Assembly: GCA_951406725.2 (NCBI GenBank)
Contig: OX597835.1
Span: 8,246,001-8,310,000 of the forward strand
DNA: 64,000 nucleotides
From: Octopus vulgaris
Taxonomy: Eukaryota
Reading direction: 5' to 3'
Both the position numbers and the translations under genes were made by a program. The notes beneath the pieces were generated by a model, which saw nothing but the letters and a program-made list of their open reading frames with translations, was not told the DNA's origin and searched no databases. This document shows positions 3,917 through 58,600 of this stretch, piece after piece; position 1 is the stretch's first letter, and every line of letters begins with the position of its first letter.

Positions 3917-3958
3917 AATTCTTGAAAAGTCACATTATGACGAAAACCGGTTTGAATT
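3917..3958 (+). ncRNA. Minimal type I hammerhead ribozyme, U3-A8 core variant
   Basis: AATTC|TTGAAAA|GTCA-catta-TGAC|GAAA|ACCGGT|TT|GAATT; perfect stems I and II, palindromic stem III AACCGGTT; lies in a (TA)n-flanked insert at 3625-4070. Confidence 0.8.
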
Positions 3959-4559
3959 AATATATATTTATATATTTTATCAATTTAAAAAAAAATTTTT
4001 CCATACACCCATTTACATTAAAATTTTCTTTCAATTTAGCATTCTGCATTTTTACAATTTTTCCTTGCTTATATATATATATATATATATATATATATAT
4101 ATATATATATATATATATATATATATATTTGATATTCATATTTCATTTGCTTCAAGTCGAGAATGTAAATATCAGTGGTATATTGGAACAGTTTCACTTG
4201 ACAACGTAAGTTAACATTCCATTCCCTTTGTCAAATTTAATGGAAAAACTCAATAAAGCCTCATTAATACCTCCCCCAACTCATTAGGCAAATTATCTTC
4301 ATCAATACCCATGTTGCAATGTTATCATAAGGCCGAGGTGGTCGTGGTATGGAAGAGAAATATAATCCTCGTCGTATTCTCAATCAATTCTTGTCTCAAG
4401 TGATTATATTTAATTAGCATCATTATCATTACAACGTCCTTAATGACTGTCGCCATCACCGACCTCGCAAGCTGCCTCTCTTTCATATTTCTGCCTGCTC
4501 CGCCTACACTTACAACACCGATATGGCTACCCTCGAGCCGACATCATTACACCATCCAA

Positions 4560-4675
4560 CCACCCCCACTACTACAACTACTACTACTACTACTACTACT
4601 ACGACTACTACTGCTACTACTACTACTACTACTACTACTACTACTGCTGCTGCTGCTGCTGCTGCTGCTGTTGCC
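4560..4675. repeat. (CTA)n/(CTG)n compound microsatellite
   Basis: Direct reading. Confidence 0.95.
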
Positions 4676-4942
4676 ACCACCAACGCCATCAACATTTACA
4701 CCATCGACAATAATTAAAACAACTGTGTTTAACGTTGAAAGCTTCAAGACACCACCACCGCCGTCATCACTGTCACAGTTCCTACCACAGCCACCACAGC
4801 CACCACCGCCATCTCAATGTTCTTACCATCTCCACTACCATTTCGCAATTATTTATCGGCACCATAATTACCACAACCAGCATCTACACCGGCATCACCA
4901 CCTCCATTACAAGAGCCTCAATCGTCCCCACCGACACGAAGA

Positions 4943-5178
4943 ATACTTATTTCTTTATTACCCACAAGGGGCTAAACATAGAGGGGACAAACAAGGACAG
5001 ACATAGGTATTAAGTTGATTACATCGACCCCAGTGCGTAACTGGTACTTAATTTATCGACCCCGAAAGGATGAAAGGCAAAGTCGACCTCGGCGGAATTT
5101 GAACTCAGAACGTAGCGGCAGACGAAATACCGCTAAATATTTCGTCTGGCGCGCTAACGTTTCTGCCAGCTCACCGCC
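4943..5178 (-). mobile_element. SINE family B, full length
   Basis: TSD ccgacacgaagaatac at 4931-4946 and 5177-5192. Confidence 0.92.
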
Positions 5179-6072
5179 GACACGAAGAATACCATTTCTG
5201 ACATGACCACCACATTTGATCGTTTTCAGGTACATTGAAACTCAAAATACAAAACAGATGGGTAGGTCATAGATGGAATGTTGTTTATCGAAGTATAGGA
5301 CTTAAATTTGCTCGACTTACTAGAAATCACAACCAAATTTTCCACATCACCTTTTAAAGAATAGCATGTATTGATGGTTCAATGCTGTTCCATCTGAAGT
5401 AGCTGGTCAGTAAAAGGGGACCTGTGGTTATAAAACAATGACATAGCCATGATTGTAATATCTTTGGTCATAAGAACGTGGCGCTAAAGGACATAGAAAA
5501 GAAATACCTTTGATCGTAAAGCTGGTTGGTTAAGGCTGACTCGGGGTTAAACAAACACGACCGTCGTTGAAATAACTTTGATCGTCCTACTTGATCAGAA
5601 TTAGTTCCAGGGTGTACAAGAAGAACAAAGAATATGACCAAGTCAAGAAAGCAAATTCCTAAAGAAATATTACTACCACCACTGCCACAACCAGCACCAC
5701 CGAAGCCACCACCACCATCACCACCATCACCACCACCACCACTACCACTATCATGCTTAGCCCTTGGCAAAACAATAACCAAAATTAATACCACTTCTTA
5801 AAATCTGCAGTCATCAAAGCATTTACAGCTACTCTCATAGCTACAGCTACTACCACCCTTTAAACCACCACCACCACCACCACCACCACTACCACTATAC
5901 CTACCTCTTGGCAAAGCAATTACCACCATCACCACCATCATCACCACCAGAGGGCATCTAAGTATCATCATCAGGGTTAACATCATCCTCTAATTATGCG
6001 CTATTAATGCATCAAGCATCATGTCAATCACCGTAGCACTACCAAGAGCACTGACACGACAAACAACTAAAC

Positions 6073-54560: not shown

Positions 54561-54652
54561 AATGGAAATAAAAACAATAATTTATAAACAATAAAAAACA
54601 AAAAATTATAAAATCAATTAAATTATATATATGTATATATATATATATATAT

Positions 54653-54861
54653 AACGGGAAGCTTTATGAAAATAAACAAAAGACGAAGGCAGGTGGAAAA
54701 CAAACGAACAATTGTATTAGTATGGCGCTCAGGAAATATAAATAAAACAAGTCTTTAACGTTTCGAGCCTACGCTCTTCAACAGAAAGATACACAGAGAG
54801 AAAAAACACAGAAAGAAGGAGAGAAAAAAATGCGTGCAGTAGCTAACGAATCAACATGGCG
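54653..54861 (-). mobile_element. Mini-element family H2 with hammerhead at 54753-54788 (A6U core)
   Basis: Minus: CTTT|CTGTTGA|A|GAGCgtagGCTC|GAAA|CG|TT|AAAG. Confidence 0.8.
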
Positions 54862-57800
54862 ATATATATATATATATATATATATATATATATATATATA
54901 TATATATATATATATATGGACAGCTGATGAAGGGGAATATTCCTTGTATTGTTTGTCTTCTAATTTTTTTTTTGCCTTGTTAAAAAAAGTCCGTTCCCTT
55001 GTTTTTATGTTTTCGTTTCTCGTTGAGTTCTACGTCTATTTGTGGTGTCCTGTACTCACATATATATATATTTATATATGCATGTATATATACATGTAGA
55101 TGTAGGTACGTACATATATGTATGTATGTATGCATATATTTTATTTATTACATTATTGTATGACTGAGCGCCCTCGCGTCGTTTCGTTTCGTTTCTTTCC
55201 TTTCTCCCAGTATGCTATATATTATATATATATATATATATATGTGTGTGTGTGTGTGTGTGTATATATGTGTATATATATATATATATATATATATATA
55301 TATATATATATATATACGTATCTTTACACACATACGTGTGTGTGTTTCTCTGCGTGTATGTGTCTGGTTGTGTGTATGTGTGAGTGTGTCCGTGATTTTT
55401 TTGCGCCTTCTTATATATACATCTACATATTCAAAGGCAAAAATCTGTCGTTTGTTACGACAGCGTTGCACTCCTGAAAAGTTTGTCGTACCGTGGGGTT
55501 TCGTAACACGAAATCTATTTTAAAATTTATTACCATCTCACATGATTTTCAAAAGCAAAATACGGCCTACGGTGTTGAACTTCATCACATTTTTTGTGTA
55601 TACGCACGCTCATGCTCTTATATATATATATAAACATATTTACTTGCATGCACACACACAAACTCATGTATTTATATATATATATATATATATATATATA
55701 TATATGTATATGTATATATATTTATGTATATATATATGTATATATATATATATGTATATATATATATATATATATATATATATATATATATATGTATATA
55801 TATATATATATATATATATATATATATATATATATATGTATGTATATAAGTATATATATATATATATATATATATATATATATATACTTATGTACATAAA
55901 TATTTTTCATTATTATTATTGTTGATGTTGTTGCTGTTATTAGAGAGGGAGGGAGAGAGAGAGAGAAAGGGAGAGAGAGAGAGAGAAATGAGCTATGGAA
56001 TTCAAAAGAATTATCGGAAGGTTTTAAAATGTAATTTTTGAAATTGGAAGCGTGCACTTTCTTTCTAAATATAACCTCGCTTAGTCGAAGGGTCTCCGAG
56101 GACATGCTTACAGAATGGTGAACGGCAATAATCGGAATTGGATAAAATAATAACTATTTTCAGTTATCTCAACACTATTGTCTCAGCCTTTTTAACATTT
56201 CAGTAGCGAAGTGTAATTTTCTATTCGCAGAAAACTTTATAAATCATAAATCGTATCATTCGTAATGCATTTTGTTAATGTAAATGTTTTAAGGAGAGTG
56301 GATATTATTTCGGGTTAGAACAGAAAATGTATGTCTAATAATGGCCGAATAATTTGCCAAATACATATACAATATAGCATTTTGTTAGAGTTACATTAAG
56401 CATGATAATGGTGGTTGACTGGGATTCTATTCTGGTTTATATATTCATTACAATCAATAGGAAGATTTTGGTAGATTTTCGATTATTCTGCCAGAAATGG
56501 GAATCGCATTGTCGTAACACGAAAAAGATGTGTATTAAAAAGAACGCATTGCATAGCGCAAATTTGATTCAAATTTAGGCAGGTAAACCTTTGATTAAAT
56601 GTCTCCGAAACCACGGTAACCGAAGCACAAGAATATATATATATATATATATATATATATATATATAATATATATATATATATATATATATATATATATA
56701 ATATATATATATATATATATATATATATATATATATATATATATATATATATATATATATATAAGAAGAAGTATATATATATATATATATATATATATAT
56801 AATATATAGAAGAAGAAATGATGATGATGATGATGAAGGAAGAGGTGAAGGAAGAGGAAGGAGGAGAGAGAAGAAGAGAAGAAGAAGAGGAGAAGAAAGA
56901 TAAAGAAGAAGAAGCGAAACAAAAGAAGAAAGTAAAGGAGGAGAGGAGAAAGAAAGGAAAAGGAGGAAAGGAGAAGAAAATGAGGAGAAGAAGAAGAAGA
57001 ATGCCGAGAAGAATGCCAACAAAGAAAAGCGAAATGTCAACAAATATAATGAAAACACACAAACGTACAGATATATTGTATGTTTTCAATAAATAGAATA
57101 AAACAAAAAACAAAACAAAGATTGAAACGAGAGAGTGGAAAAAACAAAACGAAAACATACAAAAACAAAACAAAGAAACAAAAAACAAAACAAAGTCAAA
57201 ATAACAAACAAACAACAAACACACACACACACATATAAAATATAAAATAATATGAATGATGATGATGATGATGATGATGAAGGAAAGGGCAAGAGGCGTC
57301 CTCAGCATCGGGAAGAAGAAGAAGAAACAGACACACGACGACGAAAGAAGAAGAAGAAGAAGAAGAAGAAGAAGAAGAAGAAGAAGAAGAAGAAGAAGAA
57401 GAAGAAGAAGGAAGAAGAAAAGAAGCTTTTAGTCGAAAAAAACAACAAAAAGACAAAAAAAAAAAAAAAAACATATATACGACAAGTTCTTTCTTGGAAG
57501 CGAAGAAAGGGCGGGGATAGTAGAAGAAGAAGGAAAGCTAGGGGAAGGGGAAAGAAGAAGAAGAACCACAAGAGATATATCAAATAAGAACGAACAGTGT
57601 GGTTTGTAAGGAAATAACTTAAAGCATTTAACACACAACGTACAGATATTTGTATGTTTTCAATAAAAATAACACAAAAATGAAAACATTTCTGCAACGG
57701 GGGACAAGTATTTTGTCAGAGAAAATTTCTTTTCGAGCAGATTTATCGATTTTACGCTTCATTTATCATGGAAATTCGGTTCGACCGATTATCGAACTCG

Positions 57801-58563
57801 GACATTAGTACTTTTCTATCGCATCACAGACACTCTTGAAGTGCGGGGTCGGTCACACGAGTTGTCAAGCACGAAAACAGACACACAGAAACACACATAT
57901 ATATATATATATATATATATATATATATATATATATATATATATTCTTTTAAGCCCAGTACTTATTTTATCGTATCTCTGAAATGTGACGGAGTTAAACA
58001 CACTCGTTAAGCAATGCTAGGGGGACAAACACAGACACACAAACACCCAACACAACATACATATAATATATATATATATATATATATATATATATTATTT
58101 ATATATATACTTATATAGGTTATCTTTTGCCGAACCGCTTTACGAAAACACAAGCATTTCAGCAATGCTAGGCGACACCAGACACAAGAACAAGACATAT
58201 TATATATAAAACTTATATACAAAACGACAAGCTTTTTCACGTAATCATTCAAGGCATGTGGTTAGTAAGCAACTATGTACCACACACATATATATATAAT
58301 ATATATTATATATAAATATTACGACAAGATTTAGGTCTATACATATATTTTTGTGGGTTTTGTGTTGTATATTAAAAGCACAAGATATATTTTGAAGCAA
58401 CAGTGATCAAGGAAATATATTGATATATATATATATATATATATAACACAAAAACTGATATATATTTCTGTATTATTAGAAGATTACTCAGAAAATCGTT
58501 TTATATTTACAGATATTTATTTGTATATTACATTTTTTATACATCATATAACTTAGATCATGT

Positions 58564-58600
58564 ATTAGCGCTTTCTCCCATTCTAGTGGGGTTTTCAAAT
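58564..58600 (-). ncRNA. Hammerhead-like motif, U3-A8 core (family H4; copies at about 58475-58680, 59192-59395 and 60054-60318)
   Basis: Minus: AT|TTGAAAA|CCCCA-ctagaa-TGGGA|GAAA|GCGC|TA|AT; palindromic AGCGCT; stem I short. Confidence 0.55.

Follow-up and report, generated by a model that had tools for sequence, protein, structure and literature searches.

The window analysed here is a 64,000-nucleotide (nt) stretch of the Octopus vulgaris genome (GenBank assembly GCA_951406725.2, contig OX597835.1, positions 8,246,001 to 8,310,000). It is non-coding, has a GC content of 35%, is rich in microsatellites, with 13,802 bases masked, and contains a dispersed set of hammerhead ribozyme motifs with a short, palindromic stem III. 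The original prediction for this stretch named seven palindromes as hammerhead stem III; all seven occupy positions 15.1-16.1 of a type-I hammerhead-like motif, and the first and last coordinates it gave, 3945 and 58572, are correct. It further proposed that each family has its own palindrome, that these stems are too tight to fold as hairpins, and that cleavage needs two copies of one family, giving family-specific self-recognition and leaving solitary copies largely harmless.

Both strands were scanned using hammerhead descriptors blind to stem III palindromy. A strict descriptor returned 11 loci, eight of them palindromic, compared with a mean of 0.75 loci and no palindromes in 12 block shuffles. 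With a scored descriptor limited to perfect cores, seven of eight loci were palindromic, against 0 of 38 matches across 40 shuffles. One of these seven, at 959-1030 (ATAT), is probably a chance match, about 0.95 matches per window being expected. This locus and another at 60488-60520 were excluded from the motif set as possible chance or decay. The latter, on the minus strand, has a U3-A8 core, a 5-bp stem II, a 4-bp stem I, GTAA in place of GAAA and a non-palindromic stem III, and may be either chance or the remains of a hammerhead. Only when a stem II of 55-59 nt was allowed were the three long-arm motifs (20811, 25069 and 25944) detected; short-stem-II descriptors miss them. Strict and wider descriptors combined gave a near-intact set of 11 motifs in eight lineages (Table 1), with a palindromic stem III in all 11 and seven distinct palindromes overall. 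The ACGT stems lie at 15278, 37080 and 43961 on the plus strand and at 54758 and 59897 on the minus strand.

We favour, at a probability of roughly 80%, the reading that these hammerheads are 3'-end relics (pieces of pseudo-long terminal repeats, pseudo-LTRs) of at least eight Penelope-like lineages inserting into (TA)n, that they belong to the known dimer type, and that the palindrome would reflect dimer symmetry rather than a selected family code. A (TA)n tract follows each of the 11 near-intact motifs at a distance of 68-161 nt, whereas 27% of random unmasked points fall within 200 nt of such a tract. The family A and B units measure about 210 nt and adjoin (TA)n at one end or at both, the family A copy at 15256 sitting in a unit (15181-15388) flanked by (TA)n tracts. 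Inverted, truncated partner copies occur at 24011-24079, 25712-26058 and 43168-43254. Penelope-like elements are described as targeting (TA)n and as leaving inverted 5'-truncated copies (PMC8557442), and in the Anolis element PAc reverse transcription starts 111-118 nt into an open reading frame (ORF) that begins at stem II (PMC11167929).

Table 1. Hammerhead motifs, their stem III palindromes and related copies in the window.
Feature	Position	Strand	Description
Hammerhead, single copy	3922..3953	+	Type-I; U3-A8 core (TTGAAAA); without extra base after A9; stem I 5 bp, stem II 4 bp
Stem III of 3922 motif	3945-3952	+	AACCGGTT; N17 = U; (TA)n 117 nt downstream
Family A minimal hammerhead	15256..15282	+	U4C core (CCGACGA); extra A; stem II GAGC/GCTC; stem III ACGT
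Family A copy	37058..37084	+	Core as at 15256; ACGT; same strand as 15256, 21.8 kb off
Family A copy	59896..59922	-	Core as at 15256; ACGT
Family A 5'-truncated copy	42954..43038	-	Begins at stem II; core gone; ACGT retained
Family A shorter copy	46757-46816		Without any hammerhead
Family B minimal hammerhead	43938..43965	+	A6U core (CTGTAGA); extra A; stem III ACGT; stem I CTTT/AAAG
Family B copy	54757..54784	-	A6U core (CTGTTGA); ACGT
Family B decayed copy	11416..11567	+	Core CTATCGA; GAAT for GAAA, which breaks the palindrome
Long-arm hammerhead	20811..20884	+	CTGAAGA core; stem II arm 55 nt; N17 = A
Stem III of 20811 motif	20876-20883	+	ACACGTGT
G3-C8 hammerhead	23992..24028	-	GTGAACA core; extra G; stem I 7 bp, stem II 5 bp
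Stem III of 23992..24028 motif	23993-23998	-	AATATT
Inverted partial copy of 23992..24028 motif, adjoining	24011-24079		A3 with C8
Family C, lineage C1	25069..25146	-	CTGATGA core; stem I 6 bp; stem II arm 59 nt
Stem III of C1	25070-25077	-	ACAATTGT
Family C, lineage C2	25944..26020	+	CTGAAGA core; stem I 6 bp; stem II arm 58 nt
Stem III of C2	26012-26019	+	ACGATCGT
Inverted C2 copy	25730..25810	-	Stem III deleted; head-to-head pair spans 25712-26058
Truncated family C element with inverted piece	43079..43254		GAAACGATCGTA retained at 43206-43217; without core
Family D hammerhead	58566..58598	-	U3-A8 core; stem I just 2 bp, stem II 4 bp
Stem III of family D	58567-58572	-	AGCGCT
Decayed family D relative	~60170-60232	-	GAAT for GAAA

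The core N3-UGA-N-N8-A ... GAAA ... UH, with a Watson-Crick 3-8 pair, is perfect in the motifs at 3922, 20811 and 24028 and in C1, C2 and D; families A and B have one core deviation each. Most motifs have a stem I of 3-7 bp and a stem II of 4-5 bp, the exceptions being the 2-bp stem I of family D and a mismatch at the base of stem II in C2. The G3-C8 motif (23992-24028) is a third Watson-Crick form of the 3-8 pair; our literature search showed no natural hammerhead core of this kind, and the window example is a single copy. The motifs without an extra base after A9 (3922, 20811, 25069, 25944 and 58566) all have 6-8-nt palindromes and both ACGT families have the extra base, possibly marking two structural classes; in a published table of 56 families, the two rows without the extra base also have long palindromes. 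The stem II arms of 55-59 nt (20818-20872, 25081-25139 and 25951-26008) could form further hairpins in folding and exceed those of the same table.

Lineage C1 belongs to a many-copy family that recurs in four public runs. Contigs of these runs placed on C1 at 80% likeness (756, 618, 468 and 275 records) gave 55 variable sites; of the 40 listed among them, not one coincides with any of the 37 junction positions (P about 0.005-0.017). This bears on the possibility, which we regard as unlikely, that cleavage has lost its importance in the commonest families, the palindrome being either a simple inheritance or of use for something else, for instance to join two genome RNAs or to prime template switching. 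U4C occurs in all three core-bearing family A copies (15256, 37058 and 59922) and A6U in all three family B copies (43938, 54784 and 11457), and such position changes lower activity in vitro, U4C itself having been tested and A6C being the tested case at position 6; the source elements of families A and B may have spread with weakened ribozymes. The PAc hammerhead cleaves only with the element's protein, its mutants insert undiminished in vitro, and no RNA ends were mapped to its cut site (PMC11167929). Within the window, a family C relic at 40482-40503 folds back at the stem III site, with 10 paired letters flanking a 2-nt centre on either side, as might result from template switching at the palindrome. 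Yet this fold-back is one case, the junction positions look conserved among C1 relatives, and five other lineages keep a perfect core with the 3-8 pair in three forms (C-G, U-A and G-C), a pattern that points to selection for catalysis while the lineages were active.

Under the dimer reading that we prefer, which follows published work, a tandem transcript would carry two copies that exchange strands, probably with the aid of the element's protein: the core and stem II of each copy would meet the U16.1-N17-stem I strand of the other. With identical partners, the joined stem III would have to be self-complementary, and the palindrome would follow from dimer symmetry. The same topology makes the partner copy the source of the strand beyond U16.1, and stem I should therefore form between copies as well. 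The palindrome of a lineage would drift by pair-keeping changes, like stems I and II, and would often be shared; partner choice would depend mainly on closeness on one transcript and secondarily on stems I and III together, with no selected family code. In proposing dimer cleavage through a palindromic stem III, the original prediction agrees with the published model (PMC4209133; PMC6765202), and the folding energies of the 4- and 6-nt stems are in keeping with it.

All folding and pairing energies given here are nearest-neighbour estimates without tertiary structure. A hairpin is impossible for ACGT and would cost +4.1 to +4.6 kcal/mol in cis for AATATT, AGCGCT and AACCGGTT, so that the description as too tight to fold holds for the short stems; it was overstated for the 8-mers, of which the other three can form 2 bp and a tetraloop at +1.4 kcal/mol, with a pairing probability in cis of 0.5-3%. 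This low cost in three of four cases would allow the 8-nt motifs without an extra base (3922, 20811, C1 and C2) to cleave partly as monomers, like invertebrate retrozymes, with dimerisation only improving the rate. An axolotl hammerhead with a 2-bp stem III and tetraloop reaches 22% cleavage as a monomer (PMC7229834), and invertebrate motifs of that kind are published as cleaving efficiently in monomeric form. Against this, the computed probability of 15.1-16.1 pairing in cis is 0.2-3% for the 8-mer motifs and at most 3% in all nine motifs folded. A monomer needs no palindromic loop, yet all four are palindromic (chance about 0.02 each). Loop 1-loop 2 contacts were not identified, and the window contains no head-to-tail tandem repeats of retrozyme type, all copies being dispersed or inverted. 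Monomer cleavage therefore strikes us as rather improbable.

Pairing between copies bears on whether stem III distinguishes partners. For each of the 21 possible combinations of two different palindromes, forcing a stem III heteroduplex cost at least 4.5 kcal/mol relative to the weaker of the two homoduplexes. Stem I carries much of the computed discrimination, and any specificity would stem from stems I and III together, not from stem III alone, as the original prediction, which left stem I out, had it. The 8-mer stem III duplexes of 20811, C1 and C2 are computed at -8 to -12 kcal/mol, with a rough dissociation constant (Kd) of nM to uM, and might pair in trans. For the ACGT duplex the rough Kd is in the mM range, and because it is so weak it would need a tandem transcript or protein. 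The A x B heterodimer is computed to be only 1.8-3.0 kcal/mol worse than the A x A homodimer, and family A has two same-strand copies, separated by 21.8 kb, that one long host transcript could include. Solitary copies are probably harmless, as proposed, but for a different reason: the weak ACGT duplex, distance, changed cores and protein dependence would explain low activity more simply than a code.

That the palindrome is a family-specific self-recognition code, kept different so that only same-family pairs cleave, draws on the seven distinct palindromes among eight lineages and on the uniformly poorer heteroduplexes, but we consider it improbable. ACGT is common to families A and B although their flanks are unrelated, whereas the related lineages C1 and C2 (158 matching letters in 232/225 nt) differ, and the idea that each family has its own palindrome is not borne out. 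Under random draws over the eight lineages of the window, four 8-mers would all be distinct with P of about 0.91 and two 6-mers with 0.94, and both 4-mer families are identical; in this small number of lineages, no excess of stem III differences over drift is apparent. The palindromes of C1 and C2 are set apart by one pair-keeping change (positions 3 and 6), and the two lineages come out as incompatible in the calculation that includes stem I, but stem I has three pair-keeping changes of its own, so stem III is not special. The undiminished insertion of Anolis hammerhead mutants in vitro (PMC11167929) also tells against a code. A narrower proposal, suggested by the computed strength of the stem III duplexes, appears equally doubtful: that the long-arm class (20811, C1 and C2) dimerises between separate RNAs and not just within a tandem transcript, and that C1 and C2 were then selected for incompatibility through joint stem I and III pair-keeping changes, as a self/non-self system in a window that may also hold a natural G3-C8 core.

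Sharing of one palindrome by many families extends beyond the window. In the published table, 29 of 56 family representatives have ACGT and about 54 a palindrome (counted by eye, with columns partly out of order); by eye, two different families both carry ACGT in six genomes, and AGCGCT occurs in a shrimp. A metagenome scan with stem III left open, seeded on one stem II, found at least 105 stretches. Among the 109 matches listed, one of them a viral locus, 45 with a stem I below 3 pairs were dropped and 64 retained; the single match in viral contigs is without stem I. Of those retained, 55 are exact palindromes (ACATGT 44, ACGT 10 and AGCT 1), eight are one letter off these and one is misparsed. 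The AGCT locus, L031, lies beside a kinase ORF and was set aside as probably chance. Applied to the listed loci, a general blind descriptor added 30 motifs whose stem II arms are different; 24 of these carry ACATGT and six have non-palindromic variants. The 81 ACATGT motifs, whose stems I and II vary, fall into 15 flank clusters, possibly all of one old clade; as far as these sequences indicate, stem III is the least variable helix in the ACATGT clusters, the opposite of a family code. Nineteen of the listed loci (L003, L005, L009, L011, L014, L029, L078 and others) have 2-4 ACATGT hammerheads each, often as head-to-head pairs on opposite strands about 90-340 nt apart; in L029 a single strand carries four, at intervals of 93-136 nt.

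Several points weigh against the reading we favour. No reverse transcriptase, GIY-YIG or other retroelement domain (Pfam) was found in 150 of the 157 stop-free frames of the window, nor in 69 ORFs of the listed metagenome loci, and no tandem pseudo-LTR-ORF-pseudo-LTR unit was seen in the window. With no confirmed coding remnant, the assignment to Penelope is based on anatomy; short relics need not retain coding sequence. Conservation of the C1 junction is weakened by the 15 of 55 variable sites that were unlisted and by mapping bias, and the 8-nt palindrome, too short on its own, is not significantly conserved among C1 relatives (P 0.34-0.43). The metagenome sample lost 45 of its 109 listed matches to the stem I filter and is biased, two flank clusters holding 46 and 11 of the 64. 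With stems I and III counted, heterodimers among the longer palindromes are computed at +4 to +25 kcal/mol, compared with -2 to -12 kcal/mol for homodimers. These energies support a real physical partner discrimination, in favour of the original prediction, but one that would be a by-product of divergence in all helices.

The remaining alternative, that the motifs are chance matches in AT-rich, microsatellite-rich sequence, is negligible for the whole set: the words are common (AATATT 74 times, ACGT 165 times), about one false match per window is expected and Rfam gave no match to the window at gathering score, but the shuffles refute it, and the motifs keep one register from copy to copy within repeat families and, as a set, a narrow spacing to (TA)n, though 959-1030 and 60488-60520 may each be chance. 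No hammerhead family appeared among the 150 of 428 weak Rfam matches listed, which are mostly microsatellite hairpins, and the palindrome words at 13052, 18861, 32973, 43344 and 54708 have no hammerhead context.

Upstream of C1, a 55-residue piece, which by eye looks similar to the end of a Penelope endonuclease, was not confirmed by search: its single match is a protein of 55-residue tandem repeats, hit weakly and many times, and the piece was rejected as a coding remnant. Two abundant families resembling short interspersed nuclear elements (SINEs), and possibly similar to octopus SINEs, are represented by 8961-9375 with 20 related stretches and an internal microsatellite, and by 1738-1986 with eight related stretches. 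Fold-back elements with long inverted arms at 47582-47803, 25477-25673 and 50414-50744 are possibly similar to miniature inverted-repeat transposable elements, or are inverted retroelement ends.

As corrected here, the palindrome would be a requirement of the symmetric dimer, and recognition, where present, would use stem I too. Should partner discrimination prove to be selected, these hammerheads would gain a function that the literature has yet to settle, and the mutually incompatible motifs of this window offer a cheap natural panel for comparing homodimers with heterodimers. Our literature search found no relevant homodimer-versus-heterodimer tests or self-recognition; the key 2017 dimer paper lay outside the search, so absence from print is not established. 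Reviews cite Lunse et al. 2017, who reportedly treated hammerhead dimer cleavage, the short stem III and the link to Penelope.

Among known systems, the closest are the minimal hammerheads of Penelope pseudo-LTRs. Perreault et al. 2011 tabulated varied but palindromic stem III sequences across animals and drew the dimer (Figure S8C, PMC3088659); the available part of that paper discusses U3-A8, A6C and U4C, with no mention there of a natural G3-C8 core or a family code. Cervera and De la Pena 2014 (PMC4209133) describe metazoan stem III as short and palindromic, with inactive monomers and weakly active dimers or trimers; families vary greatly within a genome, and palindromic 15.2-16.2 is a conserved trait, marked 'Palind' in the consensus line. 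The window motifs resemble these minimal hammerheads in type-I topology, the extra base after A9, the U3-A8 variant, a U-rich upstream flank, many dispersed single copies, variable families and a palindromic stem III, with ACGT and AGCGCT present in that table. They differ from the forms available there in three stem II arms of 55-59 nt with 8-nt palindromes, one G3-C8 core, the U4C and A6U families, and having no adjoining ORF found.

Newt and axolotl satellite hammerheads and non-LTR retrozymes (PMC7229834; bioRxiv 10.64898/2026.07.22.740005) likewise have a weak stem III, a palindromic loop and better cleavage as dimers. They form tandem 170-400-nt repeats with loop 1-loop 2 contacts, however, whereas the copies in the window lie scattered, are flanked by (TA)n and in many cases are inverted. 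In Anolis Poseidon PAc (Frangieh et al. 2024, PMC11167929), the hammerhead lies about 110 nt from the insertion 3' end and targets are AT-rich, as in the window, and a G3-C8 double mutant is partly active; unlike the window relics, PAc is a full coding element. A dimer mechanism is likely for the window motifs, and it has already been published. Palindromic stem III and dimer cleavage are thus known, and the window adds eight more lineages of the known class.

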